Source of the DNA: a virus
Taxonomy: Duplodnaviria; Caudoviricetes
DNA: 36,268 nucleotides
Strand: one strand, 5' to 3'
IMG/VR virus record: IMGVR_UViG_3300035135_002180
Span: 1 to 36,268 of that record
Shown here: one piece after another, positions 3,214 to 29,370 of the stretch
Layout: every line of letters begins with the position of its first letter
Position numbering within the stretch: position 1 is the first letter of the stretch
Program-made: the position numbers and the translations under genes
The notes under the pieces: generated by a model
Told to the model about the DNA's origin: nothing
Databases searched by the model: none
The model's input: the letters and a program-made list of their open reading frames with translations, nothing else

Positions 3214-3231
3214 AAATCTGAATATTTTATG

Positions 3232-3263
3232 TAAATATAATCAATGTTATCCACAAATACAAG
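3232..3263 (-). promoter_or_regulatory. Bacteroidota-type promoter with a DnaA box in its spacer
   Basis: Minus strand reads TTG-N20-TATATTTA, a near match to TTTG-N19-21-TAnnTTTG. A perfect TTATCCACA lies at 3247-3255. Confidence 0.5.
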
Positions 3264-3305
3264 TTAATAAGCATTAATTTTTATAAACTCGCCACATTCG
3301 ACACT

Positions 3306-3337
3306 GCCCTGCGTCGCCCTGCGTCGCCCTGCGTCGC
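3306..3337. repeat. GC-rich tandem repeat (GCCCTGCGTC)x3
   Basis: Exact 10-bp units at 3306, 3316 and 3326. Confidence 0.95.
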
Positions 3338-3354
3338 GCGTGATGATAGTGAAT

Positions 3355-5192: not shown

Positions 5193-6177
5193 CTATATCA
5201 TTATTATAAAATTCATACATTTCATCAACATGCATCATGCAACTATCGCAAAAACCATTTCGCATTGCGCATTTTGATCCACATGTTTTTTTCACTGATT
5301 CTTCTAGTTCATCAGAAGTCAGATCATATACATCCTCATAGTTTTCATAATACATATCGTATCCATGACCCCAATTATTATAGTTACCATAATTATAACC
5401 TTTGAAATAAGAAGTTCTTTTTTTATTGTAACTATGTTTAACATTAATGTATTTAAATATATCTCTACATAGTTGATATGTATTAATAACATCATTTATA
5501 TTGATGTACTCTTGATCAGAGTGTGGTTTGTAATATCCACATGACATATTTGCAACAGGTAAATCTGTTTCATAAGCTATTTCTAAAACATCTGTCATAC
5601 CACCGCTACATGTAGTTCTGTTATGTTTTTGTAATATAACTTTGATAGCTTCAGCAAAATTATTATCATACAGTTCTGTGCCAGATATACTGTTTACAAA
5701 GTCTGTGTCACCTCTTCGATCACATTCAAGAACAAATAAACAATCATTAAAAAATTTAAAGTCACAACTTGATGAGCCAATACAACCTACTTCTTCATCA
5801 AGAAAGAAAACAGCTTTCATGTTGTCACGTTCTTTAAGTAATTCAAGAGTTATGTGAATACCAACTTTGTCATCACCACCAGTACCAACTTGTTCCATAC
5901 TTATAGTTTTGAAAGCCACAATATTACCTTTGATTATAGCTGATGCTATAGGTTCTTTTACAATATCATGCACTGTATCAGTATGACATACCATAGCTGG
6001 ATATGGACCAGAGCCCTTTGTTACATACATGTTACCATAATCATCGAAGGTAATAGTACAGCCACCAATTGACTGCACTACACCTTTGATGTAACGCATC
6101 ATAACTTTTGTTTGATATGATGCTGATTGAATAGTAACAAGTTTACAAAGATTTTTAGTAAACTTAGACCTGTTCAT
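5122..6177 (-). CDS. M28/M20-clan zinc metallopeptidase with C-terminal CxxC ribbon
   Basis: CHTDTVH, GGDDKVG, DEEVGCIGS, ECDRRG and GYYKPHS metal-ligand motifs. ATG at 6177 (the track starts at GTG 6186). Confidence 0.85.
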   Translation of the reverse strand: MNRSKFTKNLCKLVTIQSASYQTKVMMRYIKGVVQSIGGCTITFDDYGNMYVTKGSGPYPAMVCHTDTVHDIVKEPIASAIIKGNIVAFKTISMEQVGTGGDDKVGIHITLELLKERDNMKAVFFLDEEVGCIGSSSCDFKFFNDCLFVLECDRRGDTDFVNSISGTELYDNNFAEAIKVILQKHNRTTCSGGMTDVLEIAYETDLPVANMSCGYYKPHSDQEYININDVINTYQLCRDIFKYINVKHSYNKKRTSYFKGYNYGNYNNWGHGYDMYYENYEDVYDLTSDELEESVKKTCGSKCAMRNGFCDSCMMHVDEMYEFYNNDIDETKSTTMETPVQTFRLPSKSSD

Positions 6178-6574
6178 ACTTCGCACTTGTTAAATCGTTA
6201 ACAGTAATACTATCTGTTTCAAACAAAACTGTGTTATAAAACTTGTGAATTACATCAATTTGTTCATCATTGAATATGTCATTGATTACAGACCATGCAG
6301 TGTTCATATCTTTGAAACCAATTACTCTTGGTTTTAGATATACTCTGCCCTTAGTTTGTGTCACAGGTTTATCGAATTTACCCTTACGTTTTAGTAACCT
6401 ATATTTATCTACTATATATTTAGCAACATGATATTTTAACCCATGTTTTTTAGCAACAGCAGATATACTAGACTGTAAAGATTCATCACCTAATTGTTTT
6501 ACATATGCATCACTGTATTTGTGTGCAAAGTTTCCTACACGTTTTTTACGCATAGGTCTTTTAGAATTATTCAT
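6164..6574 (-). CDS. putative HTH DNA-binding protein
   Basis: KYSDAYVKQL...SISAVAKKHGLKYHVAKYIVDKY is helix-turn-helix-like; basic N-terminus. Confidence 0.55.
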   Translation of the reverse strand: MNNSKRPMRKKRVGNFAHKYSDAYVKQLGDESLQSSISAVAKKHGLKYHVAKYIVDKYRLLKRKGKFDKPVTQTKGRVYLKPRVIGFKDMNTAWSVINDIFNDEQIDVIHKFYNTVLFETDSITVNDLTSAKYEQV

Positions 6575-6588
6575 AATATATAAATTTT

Positions 6589-6647
6589 GTCAGGACGTCT
6601 CGCAGCCTGACTGTTAGAAATATAACGACACGAGACTTGAAGTCGTT
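6589..6647 (-). ncRNA. cis-acting structured RNA motif, copy A (two hairpins with a 6-bp kissing loop)
   Basis: Stems 6589-6594/6606-6611 and 6624-6629/6642-6647; loop-loop complement GTCTCG 6597-6602 / CGAGAC 6631-6636. Covaries with copy B. Confidence 0.75.
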
Positions 6648-6652
6648 TTGTT

Positions 6653-6934
6653 TTAAGATGTTGCAAGATCAATCAATTCTCTTACTGTGCTTGCACTCGC
6701 TTCTTGTTGTTCAGCTTTGCTTTGTTCTATTTTAGAACGCAGTAACCAGTCAGGAATCATAGCTTGTATATCACAAGGAACCTCAAGTTCAGCAACGTTT
6801 ACATCATTTAGCAGTTGTAATTGAGATGTTGCTAGATATGCTGAGTCGATGATAGTGATACCATCTAGTTTGATATCTTCTGCATATATACTCATACCAA
6901 CTTGATTGATGAAAGTAAATTCTATTTTTATCAT
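6653..6934 (-). CDS. hypothetical early protein
   Basis: 93 aa ORF with an AT-rich start region, flanked by both RNA motif copies. Confidence 0.7.
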   Translation of the reverse strand: MIKIEFTFINQVGMSIYAEDIKLDGITIIDSAYLATSQLQLLNDVNVAELEVPCDIQAMIPDWLLRSKIEQSKAEQQEASASTVRELIDLATS

Positions 6935-6949
6935 AATTTTTAAAATAAA

Positions 6950-7013
6950 CCAGGATAACTAGCAACCTGGATGTTAAACAAATCCGAATCTCTGACTAGT
7001 TTTGAACAGAGAT
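6950..7013 (-). ncRNA. cis-acting structured RNA motif, copy B
   Basis: Stems 6950-6954/6966-6970 and 6988-6994/7007-7013; loop-loop complement AACTAG 6957-6962 / CTAGTT 6996-7001. Loop sizes match copy A. Confidence 0.75.
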
Positions 7014-7055
7014 AAAAAGAAAAAAAAATTCATAAATTTTAACTGCGAAGCAGCA

Positions 7056-7580
7056 TTAATCAATACCGTAAGAGTAGGCATCGAATTCATCTTGTATTTC
7101 TGTACTTAGATTGATAGGTGAATCAAACATCATGTATTGAGCACCTGCCATATCAAGTCTGCGTAAATCAGATGAATGAGTCATGTCAGCCGATTGTTGT
7201 TCGATAATAGTGATAGGATCATTATCATTCTCAAACAAATCTAGTTGTTCATTGGATTGTGATCTCCAAGCTTTTAGATTAGAACCACACCATTCAGGTA
7301 TGTAGAATGTAAACCGTTTGATATGTGTTTCAGTAGATTTAGTAATAGGATTGTATACCTGTACTTCTTCTGGCTGTGCATCTGTAAATGATAGTTGCTT
7401 GCGTTGATTCTTTTTGTTGTACCATTCGAAAGGTAACCAACAATCTTTGTACTGTACTGTACGAGTAGTACCAGTTTCTGGATTAGTAACTTCACCAAAT
7501 ACGTGAGCAATACGTATTGATTGTGAGCGCTCACGTTGAACTCTTTTGACGACTGTACATGTAATAGTAGTGAATTTCAT
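7056..7580 (-). CDS. hypothetical early protein (174 aa from ATG 7580), first gene of the left arm
   Basis: ATG 7580 follows an AT-rich initiation region (the track starts at GTG 7634); acidic C-terminus. Confidence 0.7.
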   Translation of the reverse strand: MKFTTITCTVVKRVQRERSQSIRIAHVFGEVTNPETGTTRTVQYKDCWLPFEWYNKKNQRKQLSFTDAQPEEVQVYNPITKSTETHIKRFTFYIPEWCGSNLKAWRSQSNEQLDLFENDNDPITIIEQQSADMTHSSDLRRLDMAGAQYMMFDSPINLSTEIQDEFDAYSYGID

Positions 7581-7741: not shown

Positions 7742-8155
7742 TATTGTGAAATGAACATCTTATTTGTATAGCCGTTAAGATGTTGATAGTGAAGACAATG
7801 ATTGTAAAGCCAACACCAAACAATTATTTAAGGGGGTGGGATAATGGCAGGTGTGATAGCCCCACCTCTCCAAAAGCGTGAATTTTATCGCAAAATGCGA
7901 AGGCATGAAGCGAAAAGGGTAATAAAACGGCACAGTTGAGAAAAAAAAGGCAAAAAAATCTGAGAAAGTGTGACTGCGAAGTGATGGGGTGGGTCTGAAG
8001 AAAGTGTTTTTCTAAATTATGTAACTATCCTGATATGTAAGAGAACCCATTTACTCCAGACATTTAACTGCCCCAAACATGTGGCAACTTTTTTAAGCTC
8101 TATTAAGTAATTATATAGGTGTGTTAGGCTATTTTTTTTTATGCCACATTTTTAT

Positions 8156-8822: not shown

Positions 8823-10418
8823 ATGATAGAAAAACAAATAACTTTTAAGAATGAAGCCTGGACCAAAATGCTTGATGGGGTTTATACCTTAAATTCAGCT
8901 GTAGGGTCTACATTAGGGCCAAACGGAAAGACAGTTATACTAGAAGATGCTCACGGAAGACCACACGTTACAAAAGATGGTATTACGGTGGCAGAAAGCA
9001 TTCTTTTAAAAGATCCAATAGAAAACCTAGCGATGAATACAGTTCGTCAGGCTAGTAAAAAAACAGCCCTTCGGGCTGGAGATGGGACTACTTCTTCGAT
9101 TGTACTTTGTAGTTCTATACTTGGATTGATAACTCGAAATGAAATAAGCAACGTGCATCAGTTTAAAAGAGGGATGTATGATGCAAAAGACTTTGTTCTT
9201 AAAAAATTAGATAAGATGAGTTCAAAGCTTAATAAAAAAGAACTAAAAGCAGTTGCATCTATATCTGCAAACAACGATCCATTATTAGGAGGTCTTATAG
9301 CAGATGCTTATCATAAAGTTGGTAAAGACGGGGTAGTAGCAGTTGAAGAGTCTTACAATGAAAAAAGTTATGTTACAATAAAAGAAGGTACTAAAATTGA
9401 TAGAGGCTGGGCATCCCACCACTTAGTCACGGATATTAATAAACGTGAATTTGTTGCTCAGTCTCCCCTTATTTTCATATCGTCTACTGAAATACAAAGT
9501 GCGCAGCAGATTTTACCTATACTTCAGTATTGTGCTGAAAAAAGTAAACCAATAATCATTGTTGCTGATACCTCTGATGAGTTTCTAGCCACTATGATAT
9601 TAAATAACAACAAAGGAAGGTTCAAAGCTTGTGTTGTAAAGCCAGCAGGAATAGGGTATAAGAGAGATGAATTATTATCAGACCTGGGTATTATGACAGG
9701 AGCTTCAGTTTTTTCAGAAGCCCAAGGAAATGATTTTGGACAAATAACACCAGAATATTTAGGAGGAGCTGATAAGGTTATTGTGTCTGAAGGCGAAACT
9801 GTATTTTTTGTAGAGCCTGAAGATCCAGAAACAATAAAGACTTTGAAAGATCATTTAGAAAAAGAGATATCGAAAGAAAAAGAAGCAGACAATGAGTGGC
9901 ACTTAAGAGATAGGTTGTCGAAGTTGACAGGAGGAGTTGCTACAGTACATGTAGGAGCTTCAACAGAAGTTGAAATGAAGGAGAAGATGGACAGAGTGGA
10001 TGATGCAATAAGTGCTACTCGGGCTGCTATGAAGCATGGGGTTGTTCCTGGAGGAGGTTGTGCTTTGTTACATATTTCAAGAGAAGTGACAAAGTATTGT
10101 GAAGATGCTAATTTTGAAGAACTTGATTCATCTTATTCAAAAGCATGGGAGGTTTTATCAATTGCTTTGGTTGCGCCACTAACAACAATACTTTCTAATT
10201 CTGGAGTTTCTGACAAATCATATACAATTATAGCTAAAAAAATTGTAGAAGATGATTATAAAATCGGTTACAATGCATTAACTAATAAAATAGTTGATAT
10301 GTTTGAAGATAAAATATTAGATCCTACAGCAGTAACTAAAAATGTAGTTGAAAACGCTGTAAGTGTTTGTTGCGAACTTATTACAACAGATTGTGTAATT
10401 ACAAATGTACGAGCATGA
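8823..10418 (+). CDS. groEL: phage-encoded chaperonin GroEL (Cpn60)
   Basis: TLGPNG, TKDG, AGDGTTS, ISANND, GGVA, DAISATRAA, GVVPGGG; no GGM tail. Confidence 0.97.
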   Translation: MIEKQITFKNEAWTKMLDGVYTLNSAVGSTLGPNGKTVILEDAHGRPHVTKDGITVAESILLKDPIENLAMNTVRQASKKTALRAGDGTTSSIVLCSSILGLITRNEISNVHQFKRGMYDAKDFVLKKLDKMSSKLNKKELKAVASISANNDPLLGGLIADAYHKVGKDGVVAVEESYNEKSYVTIKEGTKIDRGWASHHLVTDINKREFVAQSPLIFISSTEIQSAQQILPILQYCAEKSKPIIIVADTSDEFLATMILNNNKGRFKACVVKPAGIGYKRDELLSDLGIMTGASVFSEAQGNDFGQITPEYLGGADKVIVSEGETVFFVEPEDPETIKTLKDHLEKEISKEKEADNEWHLRDRLSKLTGGVATVHVGASTEVEMKEKMDRVDDAISATRAAMKHGVVPGGGCALLHISREVTKYCEDANFEELDSSYSKAWEVLSIALVAPLTTILSNSGVSDKSYTIIAKKIVEDDYKIGYNALTNKIVDMFEDKILDPTAVTKNVVENAVSVCCELITTDCVITNVRA

Positions 10419-10669
10419 AGGCGTTAGGAGAATATATAGTTGTAAATGCAATCACAGATGAAATTGAATCTGGAGGAGTTATACTTTCAAGTAAAACAGA
10501 CAAGAACGTCAGATATGTTAAAGGCATAGTAGAGTCTGTTGGAAACAAAGTAACAGAGGTCAAAACAGGAGATCATGTTTATTATGATAGAATGGCTGCT
10601 TCTGAAATGAGAATAAATGGTGAAATCAAGTTAGTTCTACTTGAAAGTGGCATCGTTGTCAAAGAGTAA
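10415..10669 (+). CDS. groES: co-chaperonin GroES (Cpn10), 84 aa
   Basis: ATGA overlap with the groEL stop; ALGEYIVV, SGGVIL mobile loop, GIVESVG, VKTGDHV. Confidence 0.9.
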   Translation: MKALGEYIVVNAITDEIESGGVILSSKTDKNVRYVKGIVESVGNKVTEVKTGDHVYYDRMAASEMRINGEIKLVLLESGIVVKE

Positions 10670-12935: not shown

Positions 12936-15900
12936 ATGGCACAAACAAAAATAAAATCAGGACAACTCGATTTAAGCGGAGCTGCACACGGCACTGATGG
13001 ACAAGCTTTATTGTCTAATGCTGATGGTACAATGCGATGGGGTGATATTCAAGTTGCTGGCCCTGGTTATACTTCTTTAGATTATCCTGGTGCTACAACA
13101 GCTTTAAATGCAGCAGGAGGTCAGACATTAATTATTAATGGATCAGGATATGATGCAAATACTACTGTTACATTTGGAACAACATCAGTTTCAGCTATAA
13201 GCGTTTTATCTGCAACACAGCTTTCTGTTACCACCCCTGCCTTAGCAAACGGAACATATGATTTAGTATTAGGAAATGCTGCTGGTGGTACAACCACACA
13301 AAGCAATGTTATTATTTATAACGCAACTCCTTCTTGGACAACAGCTGCTGGATCTTTAGGATCTGTAGTAAAAGACACTACCGCAAACTTTACTGTAGCT
13401 GCAACAGAACCAGATGGAGGTGCAATAACTTATGCTGTTACATCTGGAGCTTTACCTACAGGATTATCTTTAAATACATCTTCAGGAGCAATTACAGGTA
13501 CAGCAACACCATCTATATCTTCAAATACTACATATAACTTTACAATAACAGCTACTGATAATGAAAATCAAACTAACGCTAGAGCGTTTAGTATTGAAGT
13601 AACTGTTCCTTTACCATCTGAAAGATTTGAAGTTATTACATATACAGGTAATGGAGGCACACAGAAAATAGAAGGGGGTAAAATATTAAGAGGTGCAGTA
13701 TTTAATGGGAGTAATAGTACAATAACAATTCCTGACAGTTCTATTTTTGATTTTGTGAATGCCACAAGTATGAGTTTCTTTGTTAATAGAAACACAACAA
13801 ATAGAGATTTTATTATAGACAAAGCTAATGGTGGTAGTGGAAGCTATGGGTGGCAATTAGAATATTTCGGAACAACCAAAGGTTATCAATTTCAGATACA
13901 TAATACTTCTAATGGTGTAATAAGTAATTTAGAAACAGGAGCAAATTCTACTACAGGAAATTGGGAACATATTGTTGTAACACATAATGGTAGTGGAGAA
14001 TTTAAAATATATTTTAATGGAGTTTTAAAAGCAACTCAAACATTATCAGGTACTGTCTCAACAAATACAGGAGATGTCAAAATAGGTACATATCAGTTGT
14101 CGAGTGGATTTGAATTTGATGGTAAATTAGACCAATTAAGATTTTTTAACAAAGCATTATCCTCTTCAGAAGTAACAACTTTATATCAAGAAGATGATTA
14201 CACTTCTACAACTAAATCAACAACAGATATATTTAGCGATGGTAGTGGTGTTACTCTTTATGAATTTGAAACTAATGCAAATGCTACAGATAGTGTGACT
14301 GAAATTGCATTTGATTCTACAATAAATACAAGTTCTATTGCATATACTGTAAATAACAGAAAGATAGCAGGTAATACAGGCGGCTCTTATGCATCAACAA
14401 GAGTTACAGAAAGTAAAAGTTCAGGAAAGTGGTATTTTGAAATGTATTATGATAATTCAAGTTATTTCCCAAGTTCAAGAGGTGGTTTGGGATTACTTTG
14501 TCCTACTTGTACTATGACAACATATCTTGGTGGTACAAGTCAAGATGAATGGGCAGTATTTAATGGAGGTAATGTTATAAATAATGGCTCAAGTGTACAT
14601 AATGAAAGTTTAGGCGATTTTTCAATAGGTAATGTAATAATGTGTGCTTTAGATTTAGATAATCAAAAAGTATATTTTGGAAAAAATGGAAATTGGTTTA
14701 ATAGTGCAAACCCATCAAATGGAACTAATAGTTTTACATTATCAGGTAGTGAATACTATGCAGCAGGTTGGGTTTATAATACTTCTGACCAATTAACATT
14801 TAGATTTAGAGAAGGAGATTTTGCTTATACTGTACCTACAGGATTTTCAGCTTATTCAGAAACTAATTACGATGGAACTGCATCTAATGTAGCATTTAAA
14901 GAAGGAACTAAATTTTCTCCTGATTTGGTTTGGATAAAGCAAAGAACAGGAAGTGTTGCAAATCACGTAATATTTGATTCTATTAGAGGTGTGCATAAAC
15001 AGTTAGGGGCAAATACAACAAGTTCAGAAATAGACAGAACATCAACTGATAAAGGTGTAACTTCTTTTAATTCTAATGGATTTACTGTAAAAGATACAAG
15101 TGCAGGAGATTATGAAATTAATGGGCCTAGTGGTGGAACATATTCAGGAAATGGCTCTTATGTTGCTTGGTGTTGGAAAGCAGGAGGAAGTAGTACATCA
15201 TCAAATTCAGATGGAACAATCACAACAAATATTTCAGCCAACGTAGCAGCGGGATTTAATATAATATCTTATGCAGGTAATGGAACCGCTGACTCAACAA
15301 TAGGGCATGGATTAGGACAACAAGTAAAATTAGCTTTTTTTAAGAATAGAACTACAGGGTCAACTTATTGGTATGTTTATTCCGATGAATTATCAGGCAG
15401 CACTTATAATTTATATTTAAATGCTAGCTCGGCACAAACAGCTGATAATGTACTGCGAGGTGGTAATACTACAACTATTCAAATATCAAATAGTACAGCA
15501 GTAAATGCTACAAGTAATAATTATATTTGTTATGCTTTTGCTAATATAGATTCTTATCAAAAAATAGGTAAATATACAGGCAATGGCTCTACAAATGGAA
15601 CTATTGTAGAAACAGGATTTGAACCTGCTTTTTTAATGATTAAAAGGATTGATAGTTCTGCAAATTGGAGAATATTAGATAATGAAAGAAGTCTAAGCAA
15701 TCCAAGAGATAAAGAATTGTACCCTAACTTATCAAATGTAGAGGGTGATTATGATGCAATAGATTTTCTTTCTAATGGGTTTCAAAATATTTCTACTGAC
15801 TCAAGTTATAATGCTAATGGCGGAACCTACCTCTACCTTGCAATAGCAGCAGATCCAGATATAACACAACCAACACAAGCAAATAGCTTTGATGTTGTTA

Positions 15901-28605: not shown

Positions 28606-28823
28606 TGAATTATATTAGAAAAATATCAGTTGGCTCTGATTATAAAAACGCCATGCATTATGTTGTAGATCAAGATGTGATGGGTGGAAAGTGGAAAATA
28701 CATGCGGTTTCCCAAGATGAAGAAGGATATCATCTATGGATACAAAAAGATGAGGAGATAAAAAAATGGAAATTTTTTAATCAAAACACTCCAATAACAA
28801 TAGAATATAATGTTAACTTTTAG
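28605..28823 (+). CDS. hypothetical phage protein
   Basis: 72 aa, IRKISVGSDYKNAMHY; coupled to neighbours. Confidence 0.75.
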   Translation: MNYIRKISVGSDYKNAMHYVVDQDVMGGKWKIHAVSQDEEGYHLWIQKDEEIKKWKFFNQNTPITIEYNVNF

Positions 28824-29370
28824 ACCTACACGTTCGTTTTTAATAACACCGAAAAACAATCAAGAATACAACAGAGAGAAGGGTGGAGTTATAGTCACCT
28901 CATCTATAGAAAGTGCCAAAGATGTAAATAGATTTGGTATTATAAAAAAAACTCCATTATACTATGATGGCGACCTTGTAGAAGGTGACGAGGTCGTACT
29001 GCATCACAATGTATTTAGATCATATTACGATATGAAAGGATATGAAAGAAAAAGCAAAGAGTATTTTAAAGATAATTTATATTTAGTTGATGAATCAAAA
29101 ATATATCTAGTAAAAAGAAAAAAAGGATATTTAAGTTTTGATGATTATTGTTTTGTATCACCGAAAGGAGAAGAAAATTTAGAGGTGTCTTTAGGGTCTT
29201 ACGAACTTCATAAAGGAACTGTGAAATTTGTAAATCCAAATATAATAAATCAAGGCATAGAAGAGGGGATGGAAGTTGGATATACAAAAGATAGCGAATA
29301 TGAATTTGAAATTGAAGGAGAGCTTTTATATAGAATGAAAAGAAAGGATATATGTGTTAAATTTTTTTAA
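28810..29370 (+). CDS. tandem GroES-like (co-chaperonin fold) protein
   Basis: Domain 1: RP...LITP...GGVIV...G.I...EGDEV. Domain 2: DYCFVSP...GTVKF...EG.EV.Y...EFEIEGE.LY.MK.KDI. Confidence 0.7.
   Translation: MLTFRPTRSFLITPKNNQEYNREKGGVIVTSSIESAKDVNRFGIIKKTPLYYDGDLVEGDEVVLHHNVFRSYYDMKGYERKSKEYFKDNLYLVDESKIYLVKRKKGYLSFDDYCFVSPKGEENLEVSLGSYELHKGTVKFVNPNIINQGIEEGMEVGYTKDSEYEFEIEGELLYRMKRKDICVKFF

Follow-up and report, generated by a model that had tools for sequence, protein, structure and literature searches.

A covarying kissing-loop RNA element beside start codons in the early-type operon of an uncultured clade of tailed phages

Introduction

When two neighboring phage genes are each preceded by a pair of hairpins whose loops are complementary to one another, is this a structured RNA, and what could it do for the genes behind it? 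The question is raised by the IMG/VR virus record IMGVR_UViG_3300035135_002180 (Duplodnaviria; Caudoviricetes), a fragment of a tailed phage genome. The entire record, 36,268 nucleotides (nt) long, was analyzed and is called the window. An earlier note, made from the letters of this DNA and its open reading frames (ORFs), had pointed out two copies of a kissing-loop motif between positions 6575 and 7013, here copies A and B, and had proposed a phage cis-regulatory RNA under selection for its tertiary structure. Comparison with related contigs shows that the element is real, and that shape, not sequence, is kept. The reading of its function that we prefer, with a rough probability of 0.45, is that of a shape-recognized platform for the control of translation gene by gene.

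Two copies of the element

Each copy is about 60 nt in size and consists of two hairpins separated by a linker (Table 1). The hexamers that can pair between the loops (GUCUCG/CGAGAC in copy A, AACUAG/CUAGUU in copy B) differ at three of six positions. The resulting loop–loop helix, or kiss, is extendable by a seventh pair, which is U·G in both copies, and the distance from the CCUG of the second stem to the AUG is 16 nt in both. Hairpin 1 of copy A begins 5 nt past the stop codon of the gene for a 93-amino-acid (aa) protein. The stems, loops, kiss, and spacing described in the earlier note are all present in the sequence, with one correction: stem 2 of copy B does pair, but by five Watson–Crick base pairs (bp) only, and the outer U-U that had been drawn as part of it is not a pair.

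Taken alone, the two window copies are suggestive rather than decisive. The folding z-scores of the hairpin pairs by themselves are modest (−1.9 for copy A, −1.1 for copy B), and a descriptor free of sequence requirements found 0.45 matches per shuffled window, with at least two matches in 4 of 60 shuffles. These two results are what speaks for chance complementarity in A/T-rich intergenic DNA. Addition of a CAGG requirement to the descriptor left no match in any of 60 shuffled windows. The arrangement CAGG-N11-CCTG occurs twice in the window against an expectation of 0.15, and none of 100 shuffles reached two.

Covariation in related contigs

The decisive evidence for the element is its covariation in relatives. 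Protein-based scans led to 13 related contigs (L019, L023, and L034 are one contig). Since L033 has no upstream DNA, 12 contigs are informative, and in all 12 the element precedes the gene for the 93-aa protein. Twelve instances were counted, namely copies A and B of the window and of L022 and the single copies of L024, L025, L026, L027, L028, L030, L031, and L032; L023, L029, and L035 were left out as repeats of L024 or L027. The alignment used, A4, has 12 rows, 11 of them distinct, with L025 absent because the model R1 missed it, and was fitted to both stems and not to the kiss. In A4, 95.8% of the cells pair and 14 of 20 pairs change on both sides, values that none of 500 shuffles reached. 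Two-sided changes affect seven of the eight pairs of helix 1 and five of the six pairs of the kiss. In the eight distinct versions of the kiss, that of L025 included, 47 of 48 positions are paired, against a mean of 33 in permutations (p = 6 × 10−5). Two of these versions are strongly divergent, GAGUGG/CCACUC in L025 and AGCUUG/CAAGCU in L026. As the sequences are related, the independent events are fewer than these cell counts, with about four deeply different kiss types. The descriptor without sequence requirements, applied to the window and loci L019–L035, returned true copies only and missed the version in which five of six kiss pairs form.

Chance complementarity is, barring an alignment artefact, refuted by this covariation, and the kiss lay outside the model used for aligning. 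Slid controls pair at 32–45%, against the 95.8% of the true register; the element sits at 12 of 12 orthologous positions; and among 230 loci that match the sequence pattern a full kiss forms in the known copy only. Both stems and the loop–loop helix covary, which bears out the proposed selection on a tertiary RNA fold, and the compensatory changes keep a helix of 6–7 bp in the same register across all eight kiss versions, as had been claimed from copies A and B.

The wobble pairs indicate the strand. One kiss version has an internal U·G, and the seventh pair is U·G in eight of the 12 copies (U-A in one, C-G in one, open in two). Since these would be C-A mismatches on the opposite strand, the fold belongs to the coding (mRNA) strand. 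The proposed position in cis in mRNA leaders is supported. A hairpin promoter for a virion polymerase was considered and rejected, as the largest protein of G001 has no DxDxD motif and the wobble pairs favor the coding strand; one low-complexity DxDxD match each was seen in G002 and MW202828.

Conserved and variable features

Invariant in the 12 copies are CAGG/CCUG atop stem 2 and an 11-nt loop 2 in a 3+6+2 register, and a single base invariably follows the kiss hexamer in loop 1. Stem 1 varies from 6 to 8 bp, the linker from 11 to 22 nt, and the free stretch before the AUG from 10 to 17 nt, with A at −3 in 12 of 12. Three features that the earlier note had given for both copies are not upheld as defining ones. 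The 5′ part of loop 1, given there as UUCAA, is UUNAA in nine copies, 7 nt in two, and AG in one. The UAACA before hairpin 2 is not kept. The fixed spacing of 16 nt becomes 10–19 nt from CCUG to AUG, and a plain A/U-rich gap of 15–19 nt precedes the 136-aa protein gene in all nine measured relatives that have no copy A, so the 16 nt correspond to an ordinary start region and not to a special ruler. The T-loop motif has the 5-nt consensus UUNRA, placed directly on a stem; nine of the 12 copies fit it in sequence, the others being the two with 7 nt and the one with AG.

Kissing loops of this size are familiar from riboswitch domains (cobalamin L5-L13, lysine L2-L3, guanidine-II) and from the dimerization initiation site (DIS) of HIV-1. 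The element shares with them a loop–loop helix of 6–7 bp and a UUNAA that resembles a T-loop, and loop 1 can be laid out like that of the DIS, with AA or AG, six paired bases, and one base. It differs from them in having no Rfam match, no conserved ligand pocket, and no self-complementarity. Nor is a ribosome-binding site located inside the kiss, since the loop is about 25 nt from the AUG and SD-like (Shine–Dalgarno-like) in some copies only.

Occurrence

A cmscan search, which the earlier note had suggested, gave no meaningful match and upheld the absence of a known family: with Rfam 15 there was no covariance-model match at the gathering score over the window, the best E value over 6500–7100 was 4.3, no ribozyme matched at E values up to 10, and in two relatives the best E value was 0.48, away from the family types of the element. 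A strict two-copy pattern found 18 loci, none with both stems, and a pattern for type B found four, of which two were the known ones and two lay within a coding region. Broad patterns matched 110 IMG/VR and 120 GTDB loci (55 of 64 GTDB parts), with six of six kiss pairs in the known copy only. Searches with the covariance model R2 were negative for 151 Flavobacteriales genomes, MW202828, and NC_055852 and added no copies in the window or in 10 loci; its weak match in G002 (E = 0.06) was dismissed because it lies within a coding frame. A relaxed descriptor was likewise without a match in the stretches scanned of three named phages, namely 16 kb of phi38:1, 21 kb of elemoA, and the early regions of MW202828. 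The element appears confined to the clade of this phage. R2 is insensitive to divergent members, since it failed to detect the genuine copy of L025 on the correct strand, and distant members may be overlooked. Its reach is limited to one uncultured clade so far, with no cultured carrier found.

A literature search, with subscription journals and some supplements outside its scope, found no description of the motif, and four short motifs and two record identifiers had no match in the searched part of the supplements of Fremin et al. 2023 (10,006 candidates; PMC10690425). The element is real and, as a structured leader among phage cis-regulatory RNAs, apparently undescribed so far.

History of copy A

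Copy A has a counterpart in one of the 13 relatives, L022. It aligns better with the element of L025 (score 13) than with copy B (score 7), and a simple local duplication of copy B is therefore not sustained. The genes for the 93-aa protein of L025 and L024 are 90% identical yet bear unlike elements, so that element type departs from the tree of the gene, and the genes upstream of the element differ in L025 and L026. The 136-aa protein of the window is 28% identical to that of L024 in its N-terminal half and 77% in its C-terminal half. These comparisons suggest that copy A came in together with a replaced 5′ half of the gene for the 136-aa protein; the N-terminal half is also more variable in other lineages (36–39% identity to L024), which supports but does not prove the swap. 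The simplest reading is that leaders move with the 5′ ends of genes by recombination, like the PeSL cassettes of T4-type phages, and an exchange of the cassette type, between genes and lineages in a variable region, is what was found. PeSL are likewise described as small regulatory leaders that move by recombination in a variable early region, but each comprises a promoter and a terminator stem-loop and they occur in many copies (PMC2839356), whereas the element has no conserved promoter or terminator tail, one or two copies, and a tertiary kiss.

Genomic context

The rightward genes of the window include those for terminase, portal, GroEL/GroES, endolysin, and holin, and the leftward genes those for an exonuclease, an Erf-like annealing protein, a peptidase, and small proteins. 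The terminase is 36–41% identical to those of Elemovirus and of Cellulophaga phi13:2 and phi38:1, and 66% to that of MW202828; the best cultured matches of the peptidase and of a 569-aa gene are in phi38:1 and the Calle phages. From these phage relatives, the host is inferred to belong to the Flavobacteriia. Position and gene content suggest that the leftward operon is early. Copies B and A precede its second (93-aa) and third (136-aa) genes, respectively.

Table 1. Features of the element and of the adjoining genes in the window.
Feature	Position	Strand	Remarks
174-aa protein gene, first of the leftward early-type operon, 5′ of copy B	7056..7580	−	Other genes in its place in L025 and L026
Copy B hairpin 1: 7-bp stem (7013-7007/6994-6988), 12-nt loop	6988..7013	−	Stem covaries in relatives
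Copy B loop 1: UUCAA, kiss hexamer AACUAG (7001-6996), U (6995)		−	
Copy B linker, 17 nt	6971..6987	−	Single-stranded in the model; sequence not conserved
Copy B hairpin 2: 5-bp stem (6970-6966/6954-6950) with CAGG/CCUG, 11-nt loop	6950..6970	−	
Copy B loop 2: kiss hexamer CUAGUU	6962-6957	−	
A/U-rich initiation region of the 93-aa protein gene	6935..6949	−	Left open by the fold; A at −3; AUG at 6934
93-aa protein gene	6653..6934	−	Carries the element in 12/12 relatives with upstream DNA
Copy A hairpin 1: 6-bp stem (6647-6642/6629-6624), 12-nt loop	6624..6647	−	From the sequence and relatives
Copy A loop 1: UUCAA, kiss hexamer GUCUCG (6636-6631), U (6630)		−	
Copy A linker, 12 nt	6612..6623	−	
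Copy A hairpin 2: 6-bp stem (6611-6606/6594-6589) with CAGG/CCUG, 11-nt loop	6589..6611	−	
Copy A loop 2: kiss hexamer CGAGAC	6602-6597	−	
A/U-rich translation initiation region of the 136-aa protein gene	6575..6588	−	A at −3; AUG at 6574
136-aa protein gene	6164..6574	−	Weak helix-turn-helix matches

The 93-aa protein is acidic (pI 4.1) and belongs to no named family. It has 32 close homologues and distant ones at 31–47% identity, and tblastn did not find the family in any cultured phage. Its predicted model is a small beta-barrel with a long C-terminal helix (predicted local distance difference test score 82), and fold searches gave no clear match (PDB best E = 0.44; VIA best Z = 5.6, root-mean-square deviation 1.9, 50 residues aligned), with a single viral structure match at E = 7 × 10−4 to a protein without a name. 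Autoregulation by the 93-aa protein thus has nothing but a generic fold in its favor. With a pI of 9.8, the 136-aa protein is basic, and its helix-turn-helix matches are weak (phrog_1303, E = 0.001; PF13542, E = 0.03).

Function

The position of the element relative to the start codon was analyzed in the 12 copies. All end 10–17 nt before the AUG and none overlaps it. Pairing between linker and start region is no better than in shuffled sequences (z from +0.4 to +1.2, mean +0.7, positive in 12 of 12), which leaves the start open, and pairing between loops and start region fell below the 5% tail in only 2 of 24 tests. No inhibitory hairpin that masks the start signal was found. The ends of upstream ORFs are not shared, since they fall in stem 1, in loop 1, in the linker, or near or past the AUG, or the ORF is fused in frame; a terminator tail is not conserved either (2–7 U in the 8 nt after stem 2). 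There is no invariant unpaired core of the kind expected of a ligand pocket or a catalytic base. A third-site switch, linker–start pairing, a fixed upstream ORF, and burial of a Shine–Dalgarno (SD) sequence were candidates that were rejected because they were not found.

The lack of a start-burying partner, a shared ORF end, and an unpaired core disfavors switches, riboswitches, and ribozymes. The leader position would suit a riboswitch that senses a metabolite or ion, and kissing loops and T-loop-like UUNAA sequences occur in known aptamers. We consider this reading very improbable, as the 12 copies have no invariant unpaired position and L025 changes all loop-flanking bases; an expression platform is missing, pairing with the start region and a U-tract after stem 2 both being unconserved; and nothing in the downstream genes points to a metabolite. 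Harder still to credit is a new self-cleaving ribozyme with a cut between the genes of the early message. Phages do carry self-cleaving ribozymes, and an intergenic, compact element with a tertiary fold could be one, but the eight invariant bases all lie within a Watson–Crick helix, no unpaired base is invariant, and the Rfam search described above gave no ribozyme match.

Another reading places the action at transcription. A put-like nascent RNA would bind the host RNA polymerase and suppress pausing or termination in the early operon. The HK022 put RNAs also have about 70 nt and two stem-loops, lie in early operons (putR is 270 nt from the start site), occur more than once per genome, and act by shape (PMC9378689), so that put and the element, at about 60–70 nt, resemble each other in setting and size. 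The 2282-aa virion protein of G001 has no DxDxD motif, from which it follows that the host polymerase probably transcribes the early genes, and the fixed geometry would make sense if a single host protein recognized the shape. We nevertheless regard this reading as unlikely. None of six early regions scanned has a strong intrinsic terminator within 5 kb downstream (Rho-dependent sites were outside the scan), while one was found at +11.5 kb in G001, and L025 and L026 have one upstream of the element. With one copy in place, another one 360 nt farther along would have nothing to add. The stems of put adjoin, forming a V with a triplex, and bind the zinc domain of the polymerase (PMC9378689), whereas the element has a loop–loop helix and a linker of 11–22 nt and always abuts a start region.

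The fold could also be a processing signal or a 5′ stabilizer, if a cut in the upstream U-rich stretch left it as a protective end or barrier. A U-rich single strand lies 5′ of copy B in most relatives, and RNase E/G was present in the one Flavobacteriales genome tested. Copy A has no such stretch upstream, and RNase J (TIGR00649) was found in none of 21 genomes of one Flavobacteriales family, possibly not that of the host. In E. coli, an RNA locked into kissing stem-loops in tandem was left nearly unprotected against RNase E scanning (PMC9943677). An obstacle to RNase E has its pairing coaxial with the single-stranded path, and the model of the element has orthogonal stems with a peripheral kiss, an arrangement reported as non-protective (PMC9943677). 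This reading, too, is unlikely.

It is improbable that the element is dual, with an RNA fold over which CAGG-N11-CCTG also serves as operator DNA bound by a dimer, such as that of the 136-aa helix-turn-helix product. The sole invariant bases do form a dyad with a fixed 11-nt spacer, and the arrangement is rare (two in the window, one in G001, three in G002). Stem 1 and the kiss would be left unexplained, however, and the dyad is unchanged while the putative binding half of the 136-aa protein is only 24–39% identical (to the window or L024). Nor does a conserved promoter of the Bacteroidota type overlap the element: sites like TTG-N17-22-TAnnTTTG lie in or at it in 2 of 11 regions, at differing places, and a sigma-70 scan stayed at chance level.

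Just as improbable is an action in trans or between molecules, in which the element would be a decoy for a host RNA-binding defense or regulatory protein, or would form a strand-swapped mRNA dimer. A conserved shape with free sequence would suit this, and loop 1 of L025 has a 2+6+1 layout like that of retroviral dimerization loops. Against it, the kiss hexamers are not self-complementary and the linker lengths permit an intramolecular kiss; most relatives have one copy per genome; and no host look-alikes appeared in the 151 Flavobacteriales genomes searched with R2 or among the 120 GTDB pattern matches.

Among the functions offered in the earlier note, therefore, the ribozyme, the ligand switch, and the nuclease block are weakened and antitermination is possible with few visible targets, while translation control and protein binding remain. 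In Flavobacterium, the anti-SD sequence is sequestered, initiation favors low structure and A at −3, −6, −12, and −13, and contacts of bS1 are suspected of playing a part (PMC7797042). Together with these rules, a fixed shape next to an open start, one per gene, favors control at the level of translation. Copy A lies 360 nt downstream of copy B and abuts a start region of its own, and the kisses of the two do not cross-pair (four and three of six positions), which fits gene-by-gene rather than operon-wide action. The apparent arrival of copy A with a new 5′ gene half would also fit a leader that belongs to a gene.

Under translation control, the two leader hairpins with their complementary loops are predicted to lock into one rigid kissing-loop shape before the AUG. 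Stem 1, the kiss, and stem 2 may form a near-coaxial stack of about 18–21 bp; such a rod would need a linker of roughly at least 11 nt, which is the minimum seen, and 11 nt would just suffice. The AA (purines) of loop 1 may dock into the GG/CC pairs of stem 2, which would be the reason for the invariant CAGG/CCUG. The fold, 10–17 nt before the start codon and presumably recognized by its shape, would then likely be a platform on which the initiating 30S subunit (or bS1) or a regulatory protein docks, and docking would likely set the translation of the single gene behind the element. Activation, by an enhancer or standby site where the host makes no use of SD pairing, is a tentative proposal that we favor over an operator for a repressor, itself possible but somewhat unlikely. 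A further, unlikely version is a portable, sequence-free, shape-encoded translation enhancer. In it, a rigid kissing-loop rod docked on the platform of the Bacteroidota 30S subunit, where the anti-SD is sequestered, would replace SD pairing and be swapped by phages between early genes as a cassette.

Several points weigh against translation control. The neighboring genes, and the 136-aa protein gene in 12 of 13 relatives, have no element, which is thus dispensable for translation as such. Where a genome is compact, a position just before a start region is expected of every intergenic element. Unlike the rep pseudoknot discussed below, the present element has no inhibitory hairpin that it could open. 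Hairpin 1 of L026 lies within the end of the upstream ORF and may often be unfolded. Finally, the 93-aa product is acidic and the matches to its small-barrel fold are weak (best Z = 5.6).

Two known systems are useful for comparison at the level of translation. The rep leader of ColIb-P9 (repZ; IncI-alpha/IncB/IncL-M plasmids) also has a loop-based long-range pairing 5′ of the start codon and sets a precedent for initiation promoted by a pseudoknot; in this leader, the partner of the loop is a single strand freed by the ribosome that terminates on the leader peptide, and the pairing opens an inhibitory hairpin over the SD sequence and GUG and competes with an antisense RNA (PMC4705826). The present element differs from the rep leaders of ColIb-P9 and pMU720, as two closed hairpins kiss, the start is open, the ends of upstream ORFs are unconserved, and an antisense RNA is not known.

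The operator of T4 gene 32 is an H-type pseudoknot bound by the product of the gene itself. It resembles the element as a tertiary fold 5′ of an unstructured A/U-rich start that serves as a nucleation site for protein. The difference lies in the type of fold and in the downstream product, which here is acidic and is not known to bind nucleic acids.

Other observations in the early region

The first early genes (7056-7580 in the window, 3890-4255 in L026, 4185-4709 in L025) share W-x-P and IPxW-like motifs with the 93-aa family (6653-6934) and may be its distant paralogues; compared by profile with this family, neither the upstream 174-aa protein nor the 121-aa protein of L026 reached significance (E = 0.02 and 0.07). 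GroEL and GroES are phage-encoded, and a second GroES-like gene adjoins the terminase (8823-10669, 28810-29370), as in Elemovirus. Upstream in the two divergent relatives, at 4799-4878 in L025 and 4340-4419 in L026, is a second shared structured element, a terminator-like GGCAG/CTGCC hairpin. Its loop could pair through about 8 complementary bases with a segment farther upstream, and the changes between the two relatives are matched. From the sequences, it looks like a terminator/antiterminator pair, and it is absent from the window.

In the early region, the sense strand repeatedly carries the word CACTATCA, both within genes and between them; in the window it is found on the minus strand at 7791, 6857, and 3351. 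Its strand counts are 6 to 0 in L025, L031, and L035. For 16 kb of phi38:1 (L286, 20000-36000) the count is 9 to 0, and elemoA (L040) has four copies on the strand opposite the leftward genes. It is possibly a protein-binding or nuclease signal common to these phage families. Right after one CACTATCA, past the 569-aa gene, a G+C-rich tandem repeat with three copies of a 10-mer occupies about 3230-3350 of the window (minus strand). A conserved promoter-like stretch follows, similar in all relatives that reach that far, and the region may be an origin or a promoter.

The early part of L020 (42700-50000) has 11 occurrences of a perfect 16-bp palindrome that is absent from the first 42.7 kb, and L021 (MW202828) has five; L020 and L021 overlap by 2 kb. 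The palindrome often stands directly before genes, and 12 bases of its left part match the 3′ side of hairpin 1 of copy A, which may be coincidence. At 14498-14546 of the window, within a 1304-aa structural gene, two neighboring hairpins have loops complementary over 8 bases, and these may be due to chance.

Conclusions

The eight natural kiss variants and the several stems make disrupt-and-rescue tests simple to design. Bacteroidota ribosomes ignore SD sequences, and how their phages prioritize early proteins is poorly known. A structured leader that works beside an open start would offer a handle on this question and possibly an expression tool for Flavobacteria. The apparent swapping of leaders between genes suggests that phage early operons can rewire expression gene by gene, and, if true, a shape-encoded enhancer would be a natural bacterial counterpart of structured initiation elements of the internal ribosome entry site type.
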